Under the pieces are notes generated by a model, which saw nothing but the letters and a program-made list of their open reading frames with translations, was not told the origin of the DNA and did not search any database. 57,011 nt of DNA from Escherichia phage vB_EcoM_fHy-Eco03, in the sequence record MW602648.1, one strand, 5' to 3'. Positions 7,400-45,388 of this stretch are shown here, one piece after another; the first letter of the stretch is position 1, and each line of letters begins with the position of its first letter. The translations under genes were made by a program, and so were the position numbers.

Positions 7400-8840
7400 T
7401 TTTGACCTGCACGACAGGCAAGGTGAAGCCCTGCTGTCCCAGGCCACCGAGATTCTTTATGGTGGTGCAGCAGGCGGGGGCAAATCCCACTTGATGCGCA
7501 TTATGGCTATCATTCTTTGCTGTATGATACCTCGTTTACAGATTTACTTGTTTCGCCGTAACTTTAATGACCTGACAGCTAACCATATGGTTGGTCCGTC
7601 AGGTTTTCCTGCATTGCTTGACCATATGGTTAAAGCTGGTAAATGCAAGATTAACTACTCCAGTAACGTGATTAAGTTCTGGAATGGTTCGCACATTAAC
7701 TTGTGTCACCTACAATACGAGAAAGATATATACACCTACCAGGGTGCTGAGATTCACGTTCTGTTAATGGATGAGCTTACTCACTTTACAGAAACGATGT
7801 ATCGATTCCTCCGTAACCGTGTTCGTTTAGGTGCGCTAAAGATTCCAAAGGACTTCTTCCGGCCGCTACCACTCATCTTTTGTGGGTCAAACCCCGGTGG
7901 TATCGGGCACAACTGGGTTAAGCGTACTTTCGTAACAGCTGCACCTCCTATGCACATGGTTAAACAACCTAAGCGTGAAGGTGGTATGATTCGCCAGTAC
8001 ATTCCGGCAAAAATGTCTGATAACCCAACCCTGATGGAAAACGACCCGGACTACGGTGACCGACTCGAAGGTCTGGGTGACCCGGCACTGGTTGCTGCAA
8101 TGAAAGAAGGCGACTGGGATATTGTTGCTGGTGGTGCGCTGGATGACGTGTGGAGTAACAAGTCAGTTATACCACGAATGAAAGTTCCTAAAGGCTGGAC
8201 AATTGAACGTTCAATGGACTGGGGCTCAACGCATCCATTCTCTATTGGTTGGTGGGCCATTTCAAATGGTGCTCCTCTGGTAGATGAGAAGACTGGCGAA
8301 GAGTATCACCTTCCAAACGGCTCATTAATCCGTATAGCTGAATGGTACGGGTGCAAGGAAAACGAAGCTAACACCGGTTTGAAATTGTCTGCAGGTGAAG
8401 TAGCTGACGGTATTCTTGAGATTGAAGAAAACTTGCTACTTGGCGGTTGGATTCATGACAAGCCTTGGCCTGGCCCGGCAGACGGACAGATTTATGCCGT
8501 TAAAGAGCGTGACGTAGAGACCATCGCTAAAAAGATGGAAGACAAAGGTGTGCACTGGGTGCGTGCCGACAAGTCACAGGGCTCAAGAATAAATGGCCTG
8601 GAGCTATTCCGTCAGCGACTGAAAAATGTTAAGATGGATAACTATGAAGAACCAGGCATTTACTTTATGGAAAACTGTACAGCTGCCATAAACACATTGC
8701 CAGTTATTCCGCGTGATAAAAACAACAGCGAAGACGTTGACACACATTCTGAAGACCACGTATATGACGATTGTAGGTACATGGTTCTGCGAGGTGTGAA
8801 TCGTTACGCTACATCATTGAACGTTAAGATGGGACGGTAA
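7389..8840 (+). CDS. Terminase large subunit
   Basis: Walker A YGGAAGGGKSH and Walker B VLLMDELTHF; 483 aa; followed by the portal gene. Confidence 0.85.
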   Translation: MNLDFDLHDRQGEALLSQATEILYGGAAGGGKSHLMRIMAIILCCMIPRLQIYLFRRNFNDLTANHMVGPSGFPALLDHMVKAGKCKINYSSNVIKFWNGSHINLCHLQYEKDIYTYQGAEIHVLLMDELTHFTETMYRFLRNRVRLGALKIPKDFFRPLPLIFCGSNPGGIGHNWVKRTFVTAAPPMHMVKQPKREGGMIRQYIPAKMSDNPTLMENDPDYGDRLEGLGDPALVAAMKEGDWDIVAGGALDDVWSNKSVIPRMKVPKGWTIERSMDWGSTHPFSIGWWAISNGAPLVDEKTGEEYHLPNGSLIRIAEWYGCKENEANTGLKLSAGEVADGILEIEENLLLGGWIHDKPWPGPADGQIYAVKERDVETIAKKMEDKGVHWVRADKSQGSRINGLELFRQRLKNVKMDNYEEPGIYFMENCTAAINTLPVIPRDKNNSEDVDTHSEDHVYDDCRYMVLRGVNRYATSLNVKMGR

Positions 8841-36982: not shown

Positions 36983-37912
36983 TTAAACGGCCATTTGAAC
37001 TTTGATGTTAGCCTGTGGCTTATACTCATCAATCATATCTTGCACATCGGCAACCTGGAAGTCTGTCAACGGAACGTCTTCAATTGACTTGATAGACGGA
37101 CGGTTATCAGATGCAGGGTCATGGCAATCATGGTCTTTGAACAGACGTTTGCGGAACTGTTCAACTGCGTCGAGTGAGTTATTATACAGGTGGTAATCAC
37201 CCAAAGTAAACAACAAATCACCTGGGCGTTTACCTGTCTGAGCGGCCAGCATGATGAGCAGCAACTGGTGCAGCAGAATGTCATGAGGCAGACCCAGCAG
37301 AACATCAGCAGAACGCATATGGAACATCAGGTCCAGCTCGTTCTTTTCGTTTACAAAACACTGGAAGCCATGATAGCAAGGCGGCAGTGCCATATCTGCA
37401 AACTCTTCAGGGTTCCATGCCGTTACATACATACGGCGGTCAGCAGGATTAGTCTTCAGCGTTTCAATCAAACGCTCCAGCTGAGTTGTATACTCAGGAA
37501 CCTGATAACCAACAGGGTCACCGTACGTTTGGCCTTCAACCTTTACGCCGCAGATAAAGGGTTTAACCCATTGGGCGCCATACACTGGTCCCAAATCCCG
37601 ATTGTCAGGAGTTCCCCATTTGGCATTGGCAGCTTGCAGATTAGCTTCCCACCAATTGCATCCATGCCGTTTAAGTTCATCCACGTTAGTAATTCCGTTA
37701 ATGAAGCAGTAAAGCTCAGCAGCCACGGCCTTAATATTAACGGGCTTGAATAGCGGCACCATGAGCTTATTGTGGGTAAACTTAAGTCGAGCGCTAAAAC
37801 CGAAGCTGCGCTTAGTACCAACACCAGTACGATCGTTACTGCTCTCTCCCCCGGCTGTGAGCTCATTGAATAGGGTCTCCATCACATCGTCAACAGTATT
37901 AAAGGTGCGCAT
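36983..37912 (-). CDS. Thymidylate synthase-family enzyme, probably cytosine-specific (dCMP hydroxymethylase or methyltransferase candidate)
   Basis: Hand-aligned to E. coli ThyA from memory: NDRTG, DLGPVYG.QW, catalytic PPC (ALPPCYH), R-S-x-D, GD.HLY and C-terminal ...MAV. The residue matching ThyA Asn177 (PFNIAS) is Asp (PHDILL). ATG at 37912 overlaps the MazG stop. Confidence 0.8.
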   Translation of the reverse strand: MRTFNTVDDVMETLFNELTAGGESSNDRTGVGTKRSFGFSARLKFTHNKLMVPLFKPVNIKAVAAELYCFINGITNVDELKRHGCNWWEANLQAANAKWGTPDNRDLGPVYGAQWVKPFICGVKVEGQTYGDPVGYQVPEYTTQLERLIETLKTNPADRRMYVTAWNPEEFADMALPPCYHGFQCFVNEKNELDLMFHMRSADVLLGLPHDILLHQLLLIMLAAQTGKRPGDLLFTLGDYHLYNNSLDAVEQFRKRLFKDHDCHDPASDNRPSIKSIEDVPLTDFQVADVQDMIDEYKPQANIKVQMAV

Positions 37913-39487: not shown

Positions 39488-39964
39488 TTATTCTGCGTAG
39501 GTGTTTTCACCGTCAGTATCGGTAGAACCAGCGGCCAACTTAGCAGCTTCAGCTTTAGCAGCTTCTGCTTTCTGGCGAGCTTTTTCAGCACGCTCTTCAG
39601 CTTTTTTGATTTGCTCAGCAGCTTTCTGCTCAGCTTTTTCAGCTTTGATGCGTGCACGCTCTTCAGCTTTACGCTGTTTTTCAGCAGCTTTAGCAGCATC
39701 GCGTTCTGCTTTAGCTGTATCAACGCGCTTAGCCAGAACCTTACCAGTGGCTTTACGCCAGTAGGTCAGCTGAGAAGAAACGGTACCGCGCGACATTTCG
39801 GTCTCTTTGGTTACGACGTCCATCACATCGGAGCTTGACTTACCAGCTTCGTGAGCTTTGTCAGCCATGTCCCAAACGTAACGTGCACCAGTACCAGCTG
39901 CCGGGTACAGAACACCGTTTACTTCTTCTTTACCAGTTGCAAAAGTCAGTTTAGATTCGCTCAT
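39488..39964 (-). CDS. Lys/Ala/Glu-rich low-complexity protein (158 aa)
   Basis: C-terminal half is a charged A/K/E repeat (AKAERDAAKAAEKQRKAEERARIKAEKAEQKAAEQIKKAEERAEKARQKAEAAKAEAAK). Confidence 0.5.
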   Translation of the reverse strand: MSESKLTFATGKEEVNGVLYPAAGTGARYVWDMADKAHEAGKSSSDVMDVVTKETEMSRGTVSSQLTYWRKATGKVLAKRVDTAKAERDAAKAAEKQRKAEERARIKAEKAEQKAAEQIKKAEERAEKARQKAEAAKAEAAKLAAGSTDTDGENTYAE

Positions 39965-40074: not shown

Positions 40075-40296
40075 CTAAAAAGGCACTTTATAGTCAAAAG
40101 ATTTACATCCGGTTGCCTGAATGCTTGCCGGTGGCATCTTACCACCAGCCAGTGCACATCCGGCGTTTGTAAAATGAACACACTGCACACAGCTCATGTC
40201 ATGCAGGATATTAATAAGTTGCCGGCGTTCTTCCGACGACAGCATCTTAACACGTTCAACTACTGCTTCAAACTGTTCTCGGTTGCCCAAAGCCAT
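40075..40296 (-). CDS. Hypothetical small Cys-containing protein (73 aa)
   Basis: ORF between the helicase and the low-complexity gene; overlaps the helicase 3' end. Confidence 0.3.
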   Translation of the reverse strand: MALGNREQFEAVVERVKMLSSEERRQLINILHDMSCVQCVHFTNAGCALAGGKMPPASIQATGCKSFDYKVPF

Positions 40297-41941
40297 TCCC
40301 CCAGTCGTAGTTCATGATTTGTGGGTGAGGTCGCTTAATCCAAACCTTAATGGCTTTAGGTATTGCAAGCTCACCTTTACGGCGTATAAATTCGTCGCAA
40401 GTCTCTGGCGGTTGAGTACCTGCTGCATTCTTCCACCAGATGTCTGCTAATGTCTTAGAGTTACCATACGCTTCAACGTTAACCCAGGTCGTAAAAATCT
40501 CCATGTTAGAATAGTATATAACCTTGATGCTGTCAGGTCGCCCTGCTTTCTGGAATAAAGCATAGTTTACAAGAGTTACTTCTTTGTCTTCAACTCTTAA
40601 CTTGCCGTCAGTCATTACATCTTCATTAGATGCCTCGCCAGCGATAGCCGGACCATTAGTTTTGAATAAAAACTCATGCCCGCAAAGTCTGTTCTCTTCA
40701 GGCTTACTACCTTTTGCTGGATGCTTACAGAACTTAGCTGCAAATCCACTTACCTGATGGCACACAGGGCATTCTTTACCACCCGGGTTACTTCGCTTAA
40801 TACCACCTTTTTTCTTTTTACCGACTCGTGGCGGTATAGCAGGGTCATCAATTGGGCCTAAGTTAATTGTGTTGCTGGTAAAGTCCATAACTAAACAGTT
40901 TTCTTTGCCAGGTGCAACACGTAAACCACGGCCCAGAATCTGTACCCACAAAGCGACTGAATCTGACGGACGCAATATAACAAGCAGGTCAATCTCTGGA
41001 TAGTCAAAACCTGTTGTCAATACGTTTACGTTGACACAAACACGATACACACCTGCTTTATAATCAGCAAGTGCTTGCTCACGTTCTTTCTTGCCGAGGC
41101 CGCCGTGAATAACTACAGCTGACCAGCCTCTTATCTCAAACTCGGCTGCTATATTATACGCATGCTCAACACTTACGGCAAATGCTAACACATGCTTTCT
41201 GTCGTGACCATAAGCCATTACTTCGCGTATTGCTGCCGATGTTATATCTGCCTGGTCTGCAGCTTGTTCAAGCTCTGACTGTATGTAATCACCCATCCTT
41301 GTACCAACATTACTTGTGTCAATCTTAGTTGCCACTTTCTTGTTGACAAGACGAGACAAGAAGCCTTCGTTAACCAGTCGGCTAAATGAATCCGGAGTTG
41401 TCAGGTCATAACAGATGTCGGTAAAGATACCACAATCCAGTAAGTGACCGCCTGCAAGACGGTATGGCGTTGCAGTTAACCCGCTGACCTTCAGCTTAGG
41501 ATTAACTTCTTTAAAGTGCGCAATAACACGACGATAAGTTGTTTCAGATTTCTCAGGAACAAGATGGGCTTCGTCGATAAAGATAAGATTGAACTTACCG
41601 GCTTCTTCCAGGTTGTTTACAATAGACTGAATAGAAGCTACAACGATTCTGCCGCTAAAGTCTTTACGACCTACGCCAGACGAATAGATTGATAATGGTG
41701 CATGTGGCCAGTGTCGAACAATTGCTTTAGCATCTTGCTCAACCAGCTCTTTGACGTGTGTCAGAATAAGAATACGCTGACGAGGATATTGGGTAAGAAT
41801 ATCCTTCATCAACATACCAAGCACAGGTGACTTACCTGAACCGGTAGGCATAACTATTAATGGGTTGCCGCTATAAGAGTTGAAGTAACTCCACCAGGCA
41901 GCTACTGCTTCTTGTTGATACCAGCGAGCTTCAAAAGCCAT
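40268..41941 (-). CDS. SF2 DEAD/DEAH-box DNA helicase
   Basis: Motif I MPTGSGKS, motif II FIDEAHLV, motif VI ILGRGLR; C-terminal Cys cluster CPVCHQ...CKHP suggests a zinc ribbon. Confidence 0.8.
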   Translation of the reverse strand: MAFEARWYQQEAVAAWWSYFNSYSGNPLIVMPTGSGKSPVLGMLMKDILTQYPRQRILILTHVKELVEQDAKAIVRHWPHAPLSIYSSGVGRKDFSGRIVVASIQSIVNNLEEAGKFNLIFIDEAHLVPEKSETTYRRVIAHFKEVNPKLKVSGLTATPYRLAGGHLLDCGIFTDICYDLTTPDSFSRLVNEGFLSRLVNKKVATKIDTSNVGTRMGDYIQSELEQAADQADITSAAIREVMAYGHDRKHVLAFAVSVEHAYNIAAEFEIRGWSAVVIHGGLGKKEREQALADYKAGVYRVCVNVNVLTTGFDYPEIDLLVILRPSDSVALWVQILGRGLRVAPGKENCLVMDFTSNTINLGPIDDPAIPPRVGKKKKGGIKRSNPGGKECPVCHQVSGFAAKFCKHPAKGSKPEENRLCGHEFLFKTNGPAIAGEASNEDVMTDGKLRVEDKEVTLVNYALFQKAGRPDSIKVIYYSNMEIFTTWVNVEAYGNSKTLADIWWKNAAGTQPPETCDEFIRRKGELAIPKAIKVWIKRPHPQIMNYDWGNGFGQPRTV

Positions 41942-42004: not shown

Positions 42005-42877
42005 TTATAAAGAGAAGGCTACTGCTGGTCCATCATCCTTTCGTGGGTATACATCAGCCATTGTGTAATCCCCACAAGCTGCCATCTGAGTTGCGATGGT
42101 TTCGAGATTGTGTTCATGCTTGGTGCAGTACCACACCTTGCCGCTTACAGGTTTACTGTAGGCACAGGTACGGCAATTCCTGTCTGGTGCCGCTCCCTTG
42201 TTGCAGATGTGTGTAAACTCACACATACGGCATTCCCACCACAGCGGTGATTCACTGATGCGCGGCATATCCAAACCAGACTCTGCTTCAATAACACTCT
42301 TAGCCCGGTCAAGTATAATGTCTGCAGACAGATTATCACGGTGTACAATCTCTATGTACAGCTCATCCGTGTTCTTATTGATTGCCATGTACACACACTT
42401 ATTCAGATTGAGTAAGTGCATATATACTTGCATCTGGTCATAGTGCACGGGCTTACACTCTTTTACCTTATGCTTAGCAAACTCCTTAAACGATTTGTCT
42501 CCATGAGTTTTAAACTCCAACAGGAACCATTCATCGTCTATCTTCGCCACACCATCGCATGACCCTGAGAAGATACCGTTAAACGCTGACACTCGCCATT
42601 GTTTATTGGTCTTAGGGTTTACAGGATAAAGCTCCTGCGCAATTGGTTTAAGCCATTCGAGGAACCGTACTTCTTCCCGTGAACCTCGGTCAAACAATCG
42701 AAGCTGCTTGGCATTAAACTTTTCTTTGTACGACCAGTGCAGCACATGCCACAAATAACGATAGCACTTATTACCAATTTGTGACGCACCCAGGTGACCA
42801 CGTCGCTCCTCCTTCTCATGGGCTTCAACAATCTTAACATCAATTCGCTTCTTCAGCGTTTCGGCCGTAATACTCAT
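42005..42877 (-). CDS. Cas4/RecB-like PD-(D/E)xK exonuclease with Cys cluster
   Basis: One N-terminal Cys (KCYRYLWH) plus C-terminal CRMCEFTHIC...CRTC, the Cas4-type arrangement. Start placed at the internal ATG (42877) with AGGGG Shine-Dalgarno; the track ORF extends to 42925. Confidence 0.45.
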   Translation of the reverse strand: MSITAETLKKRIDVKIVEAHEKEERRGHLGASQIGNKCYRYLWHVLHWSYKEKFNAKQLRLFDRGSREEVRFLEWLKPIAQELYPVNPKTNKQWRVSAFNGIFSGSCDGVAKIDDEWFLLEFKTHGDKSFKEFAKHKVKECKPVHYDQMQVYMHLLNLNKCVYMAINKNTDELYIEIVHRDNLSADIILDRAKSVIEAESGLDMPRISESPLWWECRMCEFTHICNKGAAPDRNCRTCAYSKPVSGKVWYCTKHEHNLETIATQMAACGDYTMADVYPRKDDGPAVAFSL

Positions 42878-43388
42878 TATAGCCCCTGTTAGCAAACTGA
42901 CCATGCATTTGAATACGCATTTCATCCAGCCAGTTTATTAGTTTAGTCCTGTTGTCTTCTGTCGCCAACATTGTCTTGGTCTTGCGTTTGCCGTCCTTAG
43001 TAATGCTGGCAACATAATATGGTTTACCTTTTAGTGTTACTCTTGATAACCCTTTTACACCAGATGTGTTATTAAGATATATATTTGTGTTGCAACGGTT
43101 ATCGCTACGTGTTGCTGCTCTGACATATTTATTGTCCTCTCGCGTTAGACTCGGATGGTCAACTTCCGGTGGTTCATACCCAAACTGCATGAAGTAGATT
43201 ACACGATGTACAAGGCACTGTCTCCCTTTAATGCGCACTGTTTTGTAACCGTCTTTACGTAAAGAACCGGCTTCCGTGCCGGCTTTAACTTTATTATTGG
43301 CCCTGTTAATCTTGTTCATTAACCGGCCATCTTCAACATAGAACAGCTCTGACAACTCAGCTTGTGTAGCCGGAATCGGCACAAACAT
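42840..43388 (-). CDS. HNH homing endonuclease
   Basis: GYKTVRIKGRQCLVHRVIY...EVDH...NRCNT pattern typical of phage HNH homing endonucleases; overlaps the neighbouring genes. Confidence 0.55.
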   Translation of the reverse strand: MFVPIPATQAELSELFYVEDGRLMNKINRANNKVKAGTEAGSLRKDGYKTVRIKGRQCLVHRVIYFMQFGYEPPEVDHPSLTREDNKYVRAATRSDNRCNTNIYLNNTSGVKGLSRVTLKGKPYYVASITKDGKRKTKTMLATEDNRTKLINWLDEMRIQMHGQFANRGYNEYYGRNAEEAN

Positions 43389-43806
43389 ATTCTACTCCTG
43401 AATCAGTTAAAAAAGCCTTTGCCTCGAGCATAGATGCATGCCATTTTGAGGCAGAATAAGCGTCTAGAGAGCTAGTCACTAGCCTTATAATAGGTATATT
43501 CGCCTTAAGCATTTTAGAGCACTCTAGGCATGGCGGATATGTGACATAAACGGTCACACCTTCTGTCAGTTGTGCCTTTAAATTAGCCATACAATTAACT
43601 TCTGCATGGATTGTATACACATTCTTCAGTTCCGCTGGGATAACCGACAAGCCATCCAGCTGACGAGGGAATCCATTGTAGCCTGTTGACAGTATGCGAT
43701 TGTCTTGTGATACTATAACACATCCAACTTTACGCTTATCATCTTTGGACCAGCTACCTATAAGGTGAGCCAGCTCCATAAATCGGCTATCCCAAAGGTT
43801 CTGCAT
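43357..43806 (-). CDS. dCMP deaminase
   Basis: Zinc-binding motifs HAE (IHAEVNCMA) and PCxxC (PPCLECSKM); AGGAG Shine-Dalgarno before the ATG at 43806. Confidence 0.8.
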   Translation of the reverse strand: MQNLWDSRFMELAHLIGSWSKDDKRKVGCVIVSQDNRILSTGYNGFPRQLDGLSVIPAELKNVYTIHAEVNCMANLKAQLTEGVTVYVTYPPCLECSKMLKANIPIIRLVTSSLDAYSASKWHASMLEAKAFLTDSGVEYVCADSGYTS

Positions 43807-43824
43807 GTTAAAGCTCCTGCGCAC

Positions 43825-43847
43825 AAAAAGGGTAGCCGAAGCTACCC
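43825..43847 (-). terminator. Intrinsic terminator hairpin (minus strand)
   Basis: GGGTAGC-cgaa-GCTACCC followed on the minus strand by a U-run (plus-strand AAAAA at 43825..43829). Confidence 0.6.
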
Positions 43848-43865
43848 TTTTATTAATCTACGGAA

Positions 43866-44393
43866 TTACTGGTTCCAAGGAGCGTCAGCGTCGTCTTCTT
43901 CACCAGGAGCAGCACCTGCAGAAGCAGCACCAGCTACAGCGTTAGCTGCAGTTTGAGTGTTGCTCGCGACGTTGCCAGTCACAGGAGCAGTTGCGGCAGC
44001 AGCAGATTTGTATTCACGCACATCGTTTGATGGGTCATATTCACCGGTCTTGTCGACTTTGATACCGACCTTACCAGCTACGATGCGGTTTTCCAGCATA
44101 TCAGTGGACTTCAGTTCCACGATACCTACAGCACGGCACAGCGTAGACAGTTTGCGATGGCCGATTTCAACAGCCTGGGCGTTCGGGTTCGAATAGGTAA
44201 TCATATCGAACACAGTGCGGTTATTAAACTCGCCACCCTGTACTTTCAACTGCAGTGACAGATAAGAACCGGTACCTGCTTTAGTAGGCTTCAGCTCTAC
44301 CTGTTCAATCATCAAATCGTACCAGCCTTTAGGAATCGGGTCAAAAGACTGTTGCGGTTCGACGTTTGCACTGTTGAATTGTAACTCTGCCAT
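43866..44393 (-). CDS. Putative ssDNA-binding protein
   Basis: 175 aa with a disordered Ala/Gly-rich region and acidic C-terminus (GEEDDADAPWNQ); adjacent to the Sak4-like ATPase gene. Confidence 0.35.
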   Translation of the reverse strand: MAELQFNSANVEPQQSFDPIPKGWYDLMIEQVELKPTKAGTGSYLSLQLKVQGGEFNNRTVFDMITYSNPNAQAVEIGHRKLSTLCRAVGIVELKSTDMLENRIVAGKVGIKVDKTGEYDPSNDVREYKSAAAATAPVTGNVASNTQTAANAVAGAASAGAAPGEEDDADAPWNQ

Positions 44394-44494
44394 TTTATGG
44401 TTTCCTTAGTTTAGTTTATTTGTTTAACGCATCGGAGCTACGTTCGGCTCGTGAGAAAGATTATACGCCACTTTTATTCATGGCGTAAACACTT

Positions 44495-45388
44495 TTATTC
44501 TTCGGTTTTATCTTCCGATACGGCTTCTTCCTGTCGTTGCTTGGCCAGCCACGCCGCATGCTTCTCTTTGTGGGCATCCGAACCGATTTTGGTTACAGTC
44601 ATAAGAGGGTCAGCAGACAGCTCATGTGCATCCATACCATTTAACAGCAGATACGTATCAGATTCCGTGTGATAGTACCACAGTTTCTGAGGATGTAAAC
44701 CCTGTAGCTTGGAGTAAATCCAACCCAGGTCTGCTGGCTCATGCTTATCCAGTGTACGACCTGGTGCATTACGGCACTTAGCATCCCATTGGAAGTCTGG
44801 CTGAGTCTGCACGTAGCGTGCTGAGTTACCGTCGTTGTCAGGTGCACTCATACGCATAGCAAGTACAGCATCCACAAGGTATGGCAGTTGCTTAGGAAGT
44901 TGTTGACCTGGCATAAGAGGAGAGTACAGCATTGCGCCGCTGACCTCATCTTTATTCTTCTCCAGCTTACAGATGTAAGCGATACTGAAAGGCAGGTCAC
45001 GGAACTGGCGCATGATATACATCATTTTATCTGCTACAGCACCGTAAGCCTGTCGCTTGTCGTTTACCTGAGTCTTCTCATACTCAAGGCATACTTCTGC
45101 AACGTCAGATAAAGAATCAAAAACAAGGTGCTTGTACTTCTTGGCACCTGGATTCTCTGTCAGCCATTTGTACAGGTCTAGAATATCCTGGAAGGTTTTA
45201 ATCTTCGTGGTATCAATGTCTGCATCTGCAATTGACATCAACCCGCCTTCCGCATCTACAATCAAAGTGCTTTCACGCGGAAGAGTACGGGCCATGCTTG
45301 TTTTACCTACGCCAGACTGACCATAGATAACGACCTTAGGCAGCTTGTTCTCAGCTGCCTCTTTAGTTGAACGGATTTCTACTGCCAT
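44495..45388 (-). CDS. Sak4-like RecA-fold ATPase (recombination)
   Basis: N-terminal Walker A VVIYGQSGVGKTS; Walker B-like HLVFDSL; size about 297 aa. Confidence 0.5.
   Translation of the reverse strand: MAVEIRSTKEAAENKLPKVVIYGQSGVGKTSMARTLPRESTLIVDAEGGLMSIADADIDTTKIKTFQDILDLYKWLTENPGAKKYKHLVFDSLSDVAEVCLEYEKTQVNDKRQAYGAVADKMMYIMRQFRDLPFSIAYICKLEKNKDEVSGAMLYSPLMPGQQLPKQLPYLVDAVLAMRMSAPDNDGNSARYVQTQPDFQWDAKCRNAPGRTLDKHEPADLGWIYSKLQGLHPQKLWYYHTESDTYLLLNGMDAHELSADPLMTVTKIGSDAHKEKHAAWLAKQRQEEAVSEDKTEE

Follow-up and report, generated by a model that had tools for sequence, protein, structure and literature searches.

Introduction

A putative recombination cassette lies at positions 42005-45388 of the genome of Escherichia phage vB_EcoM_fHy-Eco03 (hereafter fHy-Eco03), and its closest described counterparts are the Sak4 annealing proteins of other phages together with their single-strand DNA-binding protein (SSB) partners. 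The Sak4 of phage HK620 (HkaL) binds single-stranded DNA (ssDNA) and anneals it with ATP, and the neighbouring SSB (HkaK), which the authors equate with DUF669 by remote homology, stimulates this Sak4 via its last six residues (PMC5928155). The Sak4 of Pseudomonas phage 73 (PA73) promoted oligonucleotide annealing in vivo in Escherichia coli, albeit weakly (PMC2896510). Staphylococcus phage 52A Sak4 forms filaments (PDB 8RC5), for which the authors name human Rad51 as the closest structural homolog, and a Lys-x-Arg motif in this structure touches the nucleotide of the neighbouring protomer. In a survey of Firmicutes phages, sak4 was usually located upstream of genes for SSB/DUF669 and for a ResIII/Helicase_C helicase (PMC8093625).

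fHy-Eco03 is a virulent phage of the genus Rosemountvirus with a genome of 57,011 bp (GenBank MW602648), direct terminal repeats of 3,699 bp, and reverse-strand genes g49-g78 (PMC8145870). The window analysed here is this complete genome, and direct comparison shows that its first and last 3,699 bases are identical. The closest records in the phage collection are the Salmonella phages KE25 and KE26 (95.9% identity), followed by vB_SE1_KM (91.7%), while about 55 more records, mostly Salmonella and Escherichia phages of ~52-57 kb, match the genome at 74-81%.

Here, we identify the cassette, with a probability of roughly 80%, as a standard phage end-processing and single-strand-annealing module of four genes. 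Gene identities, folds, catalytic and metal-ligand motifs, and conserved synteny are observed directly and form the basis of this assignment.

Results

The conserved unit comprises four genes in fixed order

An earlier note on this stretch, made from the sequence alone, had described a compact set of three genes encoding a Sak4-like ATPase, an SSB-like protein, and a Cas4-like nuclease. The three open reading frames (ORFs) indeed lie on the minus strand within the limits that it gave, but the interval contains five minus-strand genes, g63R to g67R (Table 1), as a deaminase and an HNH gene intervene; moreover, the helicase partner g62R, just outside the interval, had been missed. Fold-level support, named beforehand in the note as the check that could refute it, is present for all three assignments.

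The conserved unit consists of Sak4, DUF669 SSB, nuclease, and a superfamily 2 (SF2) helicase, in this fixed order. Three distant nuclease homologs (~40% identity), located on unrelated metagenomic contigs, are embedded in the arrangement AAA_24, DUF669, an optional small ORF, nuclease, and a DEAD/ResIII/Helicase_C helicase. We extended the comparison to 80 IMG/VR loci that contain nuclease relatives at 38-49% identity and scanned them with profiles of the window proteins. Sak4 followed by DUF669 is found upstream of the nuclease and on the same strand in 52 of 52 loci that offer at least 2.5 kb of upstream sequence. Thus, synteny over a large evolutionary distance independently ties Sak4, DUF669, and the nuclease together. 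A helicase homolog follows directly downstream of the nuclease in 51 of the 67 loci with at least 1.9 kb of downstream sequence, which is a lower bound because the helicase search used a single sequence.

Gp67 is a Sak4-like ATPase with a clade-specific extension

The g67R product, in which VVIYGQSGVGKTS is found, carries the signatures of a RecA-superfamily ATPase: Walker A (GQSGVGKT), Walker B (LVFDS), a putative catalytic glutamate within DAEGG, and the Lys/Arg pair of a C-terminal hairpin in AKCRN. Gp67 matches Pfam AAA_24 (PF13479) with 102.8 bits (cut-off 27, E 2.8e-29) over profile positions 3-194 of 195, and phrog_124, named Sak4-like ssDNA annealing protein, with 1.3e-51. Invariant positions of the family include G23xxGxGKT30 (with G26, G28, K29, and T30), E47, and D91, while K204 and R206 are conserved in at least 90% of the relatives and align with K-I-R of PDB 8RC5. 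A single-sequence search of the PDB with Gp67 reaches an E value of only 0.055, yet the profile built from 45 Gp67 relatives matches the phage 52A Sak4 structure over the whole core (E 5.8e-12). The RecA-fold, Sak4-like ATPase of the earlier note is thereby confirmed at its position by AAA_24, phrog_124, and the 8RC5 profile match.

Lopes et al (2010) described Sak4 proteins as core-only, shorter than 290 aa, and devoid of a second DNA-binding domain. Gp67 comprises 297 aa; its core ends at ~215-230 and is followed by a clade-specific extension of ~65 aa. This extension (residues ~232-297) combines the pattern WYYH...G.D..K.KH.AW with an acidic end, compared with a usual Sak4 length of 230-265 aa, and is restricted to Rosemountvirus-like phages and a sister clade of ~45 kb contigs. 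It has no Pfam match and is consequently neither a RecA nor a DnaB C-terminal domain. A search against 1.84 billion representative proteins returned a single true relative plus two short matches of repeat-like character, which argues against a known mobile domain. The extension seems to be under-described.

A cognate SSB neighbour is present, as the DUF669 gene starts 101 bp downstream of g67R, and the pairing of Sak4 with an SSB, which the earlier note had named as a known annealing system, has been demonstrated experimentally (PMC5928155). By analogy to the HK620 and PA73 homologs, we predict that Gp67 binds and anneals ssDNA in an ATP-dependent manner.

The GenBank entry labels Gp67 as a putative structural protein, which would imply that Gp63, Gp66, and Gp67 are virion proteins, either structural or co-packaged. 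All three were detected by liquid chromatography-tandem mass spectrometry in purified particles in the published analysis. However, 48 of the 81 proteins were positive in the same analysis, DNA polymerase, primase/helicase, and thymidylate synthase among them, which indicates carry-over of abundant replication proteins, and the evidence from family, fold, and synteny consistently points to DNA metabolism. A virion role of the three proteins is very improbable, and the structural label is most likely a carry-over artefact.

Gp66 is an SSB-like protein with a conserved Pro-Trp tip

Gp66 matches Pfam DUF669 (PF05037) with 56.8 bits (cut-off 21, E 3.5e-15) as well as several PHROGs named single-strand DNA-binding protein. 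In the predicted structure, an oligonucleotide/oligosaccharide-binding (OB) fold occupies approximately residues 20-130 and is followed by an Ala/Gln-rich linker and the acidic tip EEDDADAPWNQ, with residues 134-169 modelled at a predicted local distance difference test (pLDDT) score below 50. The acidic-tailed, ssDNA-binding-like protein of the earlier note is thus recovered in family, fold, and tail. Gp66 has no match at E <= 0.01 to the canonical bacterial-type family Pfam SSB, which we take to be PF00436, and PDB sequence searches with the single sequence and with the profile gave no match.

Within the tail, P172 and W173 are invariant or nearly so among relatives, and 51 of 56 DUF669 relatives have Pro-Trp among their last six residues. 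Acidic neighbours of this motif are confined to the Rosemountvirus clade, and in most other relatives the adjoining residues are basic (PPWKR and similar). Since Pro-Trp is kept while the flanking charge varies, the conserved signal is the Pro-Trp tip rather than the charge. This feature of the DUF669 tail seems to have been under-described. As a separate observation, a 337-aa protein of Salmonella phage rivia annotated as 'dCMP deaminase domain' (BFVD A0A6G8RAU2) matches the DUF669 model with 69% identity, indicating that SSB-like and deaminase genes are fused there or joined by a missed stop codon.

Gp63 resembles Cas4 but lies outside the Cas4 family

The mechanical ORF of g63R spans 42005-42925; we set the start at M17, because relatives (290-295 aa) and the published annotation place it there. 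Gp63 matches Pfam PDDEXK_1 with 24.3 bits (cut-off 22) and phrog_1990, named Cas4-domain exonuclease, with 1.3e-94. The active-site residues D108, E121, K123, Q148, and Y152 (D/ExK/QxxxY) are invariant among relatives, as are C38, C219, and C225, while C216 is conserved in at least 90%. Together, the four cysteines form a C...CX2CX5C pattern (C38 and C216-X2-C219-X5-C225) of the Cas4/AddB/Dna2 type. Hence, the PD-(D/E)xK nuclease with a Cas4-type Cys arrangement proposed in the earlier note was read correctly. Searches of the PDB with the single sequence and with the profile yielded nothing useful for Gp63.

From this resemblance, the earlier note had raised an effect on host CRISPR adaptation. 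For Campylobacter phages, it has been proposed that a functional phage Cas4 disturbs or diverts spacer acquisition by the host, and a CRISPR effect of a Cas4-like protein was reported there (PMC4283603); Gp63 shares with Cas4 the RecB-type nuclease motifs and the four cysteines of a predicted Fe-S site. In contrast, Gp63 reaches only 15.9 bits against NCBIfam cas4 (TIGR00372, cut-off 65). Non-CRISPR exonucleases match it equally well or better (LHK-Exo 13.3, lambda Exo 12.0). There is no match to Pfam Cas_Cas4, presumably PF01930. The fHy-Eco03 genome contains no CRISPR-like repeat array, and in all loci examined Gp63 relatives adjoin Sak4, DUF669, and helicase genes instead of cas1/cas2. Among 415 cultured-phage records with a Gp63 relative (E <= 1e-5), none belongs to a Campylobacter phage; the relatives reside mostly in Pseudomonas, Escherichia, Salmonella, Vibrio, and Stenotrophomonas phages. 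To our knowledge, moreover, the type I-E adaptation machinery of E. coli works without Cas4. A CRISPR-directed function of Gp63 is therefore hardly credible, and the analysis lends this suggestion of the earlier note no support.

Judged by sequence, Gp63 resembles Cas4 in active-site motifs, Cys pattern, and probable fold, but is not a member of the Cas4 family. With exonucleases of the Lambda-Exo/RecE/YqaJ type it shares the predicted fold and the pairing with an annealase gene; it has no match to Pfam YqaJ and scores 13.7 bits against TIGR03033 (cut-off 68).

Downstream of the Cas4-type cluster, Gp63 contains a second Cys4 module (C235-R-T-C238...W249-x-C251...C268), which is kept in 74 of its 80 relatives and displays weak similarity to the SPASM auxiliary-cluster domain and to the Fe-S small subunit of 4-hydroxyphenylacetate decarboxylase. 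We know of no Cas4 protein with a C-terminal module of this kind, and it too seems under-described.

The helicase and a possible resection machine

The g62R product matches Pfam ResIII, Helicase_C, and DEAD. Its best NCBIfam match is RadD (NF053632), with 289.6 bits over residues 4-402 (E 3.9e-86); as this is below the equivalog cut-off of 720, we classify it as a RadD/UvsW-type SF2 helicase and not as RadD itself. The fHy-Eco03 paper reports T4 UvsW as its HHpred match. Following the SF2 core, residues 391-422 form a C-terminal zinc-finger-like motif (CPVC...C.H...C.H) that recalls the RadD zinc finger, and the helicase of one relative has a weak match to the UPF0547 zinc ribbon.

We put forward, as a tentative and on balance doubtful extension, that Gp63 represents a distinct uncharacterised subfamily whose second Cys4 module might coordinate an additional metal centre (zinc or another Fe-S cluster) and might couple Gp63 to the adjacent RadD-like helicase. 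The two proteins would then constitute a compact two-subunit helicase-nuclease resection machine dedicated to Sak4 and the DUF669 SSB, with the Pro-Trp tip as the common docking signal.

Passenger genes occupy a variable slot

Between the SSB-like and nuclease genes, the cassette has a variable slot. In Rosemountvirus it holds the dCMP deaminase, to which an HNH gene is added in fHy-Eco03 alone. The deaminase g65R (Pfam dCMP_cyt_deam_1 2.3e-20, phrog_174 5.4e-38) is only 53% identical to the allele of the closest relative KE25. The HNH gene g64R (phrog_99 HNH endonuclease, 6.6e-37; I-HmuI as HHpred match in the fHy-Eco03 paper) overlaps the 3' end of the deaminase gene and the 5' end of the nuclease gene and is absent from the close relatives KE25 and SE13. 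The nuclease start codon (42877) marks the exact point at which homology to KE25 ends; this homology sets in again at 43765 within the deaminase N-terminus, so that 887 bp with the HNH gene and the divergent deaminase allele stand in place of 387 bp in KE25. None of 50,697 phage records matches this segment at the nucleotide level, and it looks like a homing-endonuclease cassette imported together with a foreign deaminase allele. Deaminase and HNH gene are passengers, the former a nucleotide metabolism gene and the latter a selfish element.

In 32 of the 80 related cassettes, the slot is filled by a family of ~124-aa Arg/Ala-rich ORFs (e.g., 7627-8001 in locus L007), for which the fHy-Eco03 window contains no homolog and which may encode an accessory factor of the cassette.

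Table 1. Positions of the cassette genes and of the features within and beside them in the fHy-Eco03 genome.
Feature	Position	Strand	Basis or description
g67R, Sak4-like RecA-core ATPase	44495-45388	-	297 aa; Pfam AAA_24, phrog_124
Gp67 Walker A	45299-45322	-	GQSGVGKT
Gp67 invariant Glu	45242-45256	-	DAEGG
Gp67 Walker B	45113-45127	-	LVFDS
Gp67 Lys/Arg motif	44768-44782	-	AKCRN
Gp67 C-terminal extension	44498-44695	-	residues ~232-297
g66R, DUF669 OB-fold SSB-like protein	43866-44393	-	175 aa; Pfam DUF669, SSB-named PHROGs
Gp66 linker	43902-44003	-	Ala/Gln-rich
Gp66 acidic tip	43869-43901	-	EEDDADAPWNQ
Terminator-like hairpin	43826-43851	-	fold energy, sequence
g65R, dCMP deaminase	43357-43806	-	Pfam dCMP_cyt_deam_1, phrog_174; published start codon
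Segment replacing KE25 sequence	42878-43764		887 bp
g64R, HNH homing endonuclease	42840-43388	-	182 aa; phrog_99, published HHpred I-HmuI 1U3E
g63R, Cys-rich PD-(D/E)xK nuclease, lambda-Exo/RecB/Cas4 fold	42005-42877	-	290 aa; Pfam PDDEXK_1, phrog_1990
Gp63 motifs D108; E121xK123; QxxxY	42548-42562; 42506-42520; 42422-42436	-	alignment
Gp63 first Cys cluster, C38; CX2CX5C	42764-42775; 42203-42232	-	alignment; predicted Fe-S
Gp63 second Cys module, CRTC; WxC; C268	42164-42175; 42125-42133; 42068-42082	-	invariant Cys
g62R, RadD/UvsW-like SF2 helicase	40268-41941	-	557 aa; Pfam ResIII/Helicase_C/DEAD; just outside 42005-45388
Helicase zinc-finger-like motif	40676-40771	-	residues 391-422
ORF with low-complexity C-terminal half	39488-39964	-	158 aa; phrog_28664
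Tandem repeat in this ORF	39540-39571		15-nt unit

Transcriptional signals and neighbouring genes

Directly 3' of g66R, an 11-bp stem with a UUCG loop and a U run ending its 3' arm folds at -20.1 kcal/mol (z -2.35 vs shuffles). From its sequence, this hairpin is intrinsic-terminator-like and may act as such. It divides the Sak4/SSB pair from the deaminase, HNH, nuclease, and helicase genes, a position that suggests two transcription units or attenuation. A promoter scan gave 20 promoter-like sites compared with 13.2 +/- 3.6 expected; on this basis, we assign no promoter.

Several observations concern the surroundings of the cassette. A 158-aa minus-strand ORF whose C-terminal half is Lys/Ala/Glu-rich and of low complexity matches phrog_28664 (function not named), and carries the only tandem repeat of the genome as well as a 23-nt direct repeat. 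A dCMP deaminase, a thymidylate-synthase-like gene, and a nucleoside triphosphate (NTP) pyrophosphohydrolase are found beside the cassette (36983-37912 and 43357-43806 are the positions listed), and in other lineages (loci L005, L006, and L007) the same cassette adjoins deazaguanine genes (QueC/QueD/QueE/FolE/QueF). Of ten restriction enzymes, only one cut fHy-Eco03 DNA, implying DNA modification (PMC8145870).

Discussion

A model for end processing and annealing

In the model that we favour, the PD-(D/E)xK nuclease, probably together with the helicase, would resect double-stranded DNA (dsDNA) ends in 5'->3' direction and leave 3' ssDNA tails, which the DUF669 OB-fold protein would coat. The flexible C-terminal tail of Gp66 with its Pro-Trp tip, acidic in fHy-Eco03, could recruit Sak4 and perhaps other partners. 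The Sak4 RecA-core ATPase would then bind the SSB-coated DNA and anneal complementary strands in an ATP-dependent manner. For fHy-Eco03, which is virulent and has terminal repeats of 3.7 kb, the cassette would probably serve concatemer formation, recombination-dependent replication, and break repair; annealing of the resected repeats would be a straightforward way of forming concatemers and of priming replication by recombination.

A number of points weigh against this model. Recombineering with Sak4 alone was very inefficient, with yields of 1-2 x 10^-6 (PMC2896510), and the Gp67 family profile aligns with the HK620 Sak4 over 33 columns only. The Gp66 model is of moderate confidence overall (pLDDT 69), and its best structural match, PrgE of plasmid pCF10, binds dsDNA as well as ssDNA. 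Between the Gp66 family profile and the HK620 SSB there is no detectable sequence link (hhalign probability 0.9%), and the latter lacks a Pfam DUF669 match at E <= 0.01; for these reasons we do not claim direct homology of the two, which are connected solely by the remote-homology analysis of PMC5928155. The tie of Gp66 to a biochemically proven SSB is instead based on fold, PHROG naming, and gene position. Similarly, the biochemical activities and life-cycle roles proposed for the cassette proteins are taken over from characterised homologs, as is the nuclease polarity, which is not readable from the sequence.

Finally, the genomic setting would also fit a mainly replicative role. The cassette could primarily be a replication module, in which AAA_24 serves as a replisome loader or organiser, DUF669 as the replicative SSB, and nuclease and helicase act in a Dna2-like manner in flap or primer removal or fork processing. 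The fHy-Eco03 cassette is flanked by the genes for DNA polymerase, thymidylate synthase, and primase/helicase, its counterparts in other lineages adjoin primase-polymerase or DNA polymerase genes, and no further SSB came to notice in the genome part examined; the poor recombineering by Sak4 alone points in the same direction. However, homologous Sak4 proteins anneal DNA and form Rad51-like filaments, and the two roles are not exclusive, as phage recombination commonly primes replication. We consider a primarily replicative module unlikely, and retain end processing and annealing as the probable function of the cassette.

Significance

Our assignment is a correct re-reading of an already known module. 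Records of close relatives name the genes as Sak4-like ssDNA annealing protein, single strand DNA binding protein, dCMP deaminase, Cas4-domain exonuclease, and DNA helicase. The ZCSE2 paper lists a 'Cas4 family exonuclease' and a 'DUF669 domain-containing protein', while the fHy-Eco03 paper describes Gp67 as NTP hydrolase or structural protein, Gp66 as without hit, and Gp63 as exonuclease. A literature search for Rosemountvirus together with Sak4 found nothing. The under-described features, namely the Cys4 module, the Sak4 extension, and the Pro-Trp tip, leave this verdict unchanged.

Beyond annotation, by which Gp67 becomes a Sak4-like annealase and Gp66 a DUF669 SSB-like protein, the significance is small. 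In the loci surveyed, Sak4 and DUF669 are obligate companions of the Gp63 nuclease subfamily and an SF2 helicase is a usual one; this argues against inferring CRISPR interference from 'Cas4-domain' labels in such phages. The four proteins also constitute a defined candidate recombineering toolkit for enterobacteria.

Comparison with known systems

Compared with CRISPR Cas4 (SSO0001, PDB 4IC1), Gp63 scores below the family cut-offs, has no cas neighbours, and possesses the added invariant C-terminal Cys4 module (CRTC...WxC...C). PrgE (PDB 8S4S) shares 13% identity with Gp66 and is a plasmid conjugation protein for which, unlike Gp66, no C-terminal Pro-Trp tip is described. The profile match of phage 52A Sak4 to Gp67 spans the ATPase core including Walker A and K-x-R, at low sequence identity and with different neighbouring genes.

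The cassette also differs from Lambda Red (Exo/Beta) and RecET. Its annealase has a RecA core and binds ATP, in contrast to a Rad52-like ring, its nuclease carries Cys clusters, and a dedicated SSB and a helicase are encoded in addition.

HK620 shares with fHy-Eco03 the adjacent gene pair of Sak4 followed by SSB, and its Sak4 likewise belongs to Pfam AAA_24. The tip of the HK620 SSB, a proline and an aromatic residue needed to stimulate Sak4, is reminiscent of the Pro-Trp tip of Gp66. In contrast, the HK620 pair is only remotely related to Gp67 and Gp66, the HK620 module hijacks host RecBCD via Abc2 instead of providing its own nuclease and helicase, and HK620 is temperate while fHy-Eco03 is virulent.

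The PA73 cassette, unlike that of fHy-Eco03, contains neither a deaminase nor an HNH gene; its Sak4 (238 aa) lacks the C-terminal extension of Gp67, and its nuclease shares both Cys modules with Gp63 but differs in a ~50-residue insertion. Nevertheless, PA73 gp032-gp029 correspond to the four fHy-Eco03 genes in order and orientation and are directly homologous to them, with identities between the two phages of 25% for Sak4 (E 1e-19), 31% for DUF669 (E 2e-17), 32% for the nuclease (E 1e-52), and 37% for the helicase, PA73 gp029 (E 5e-124).

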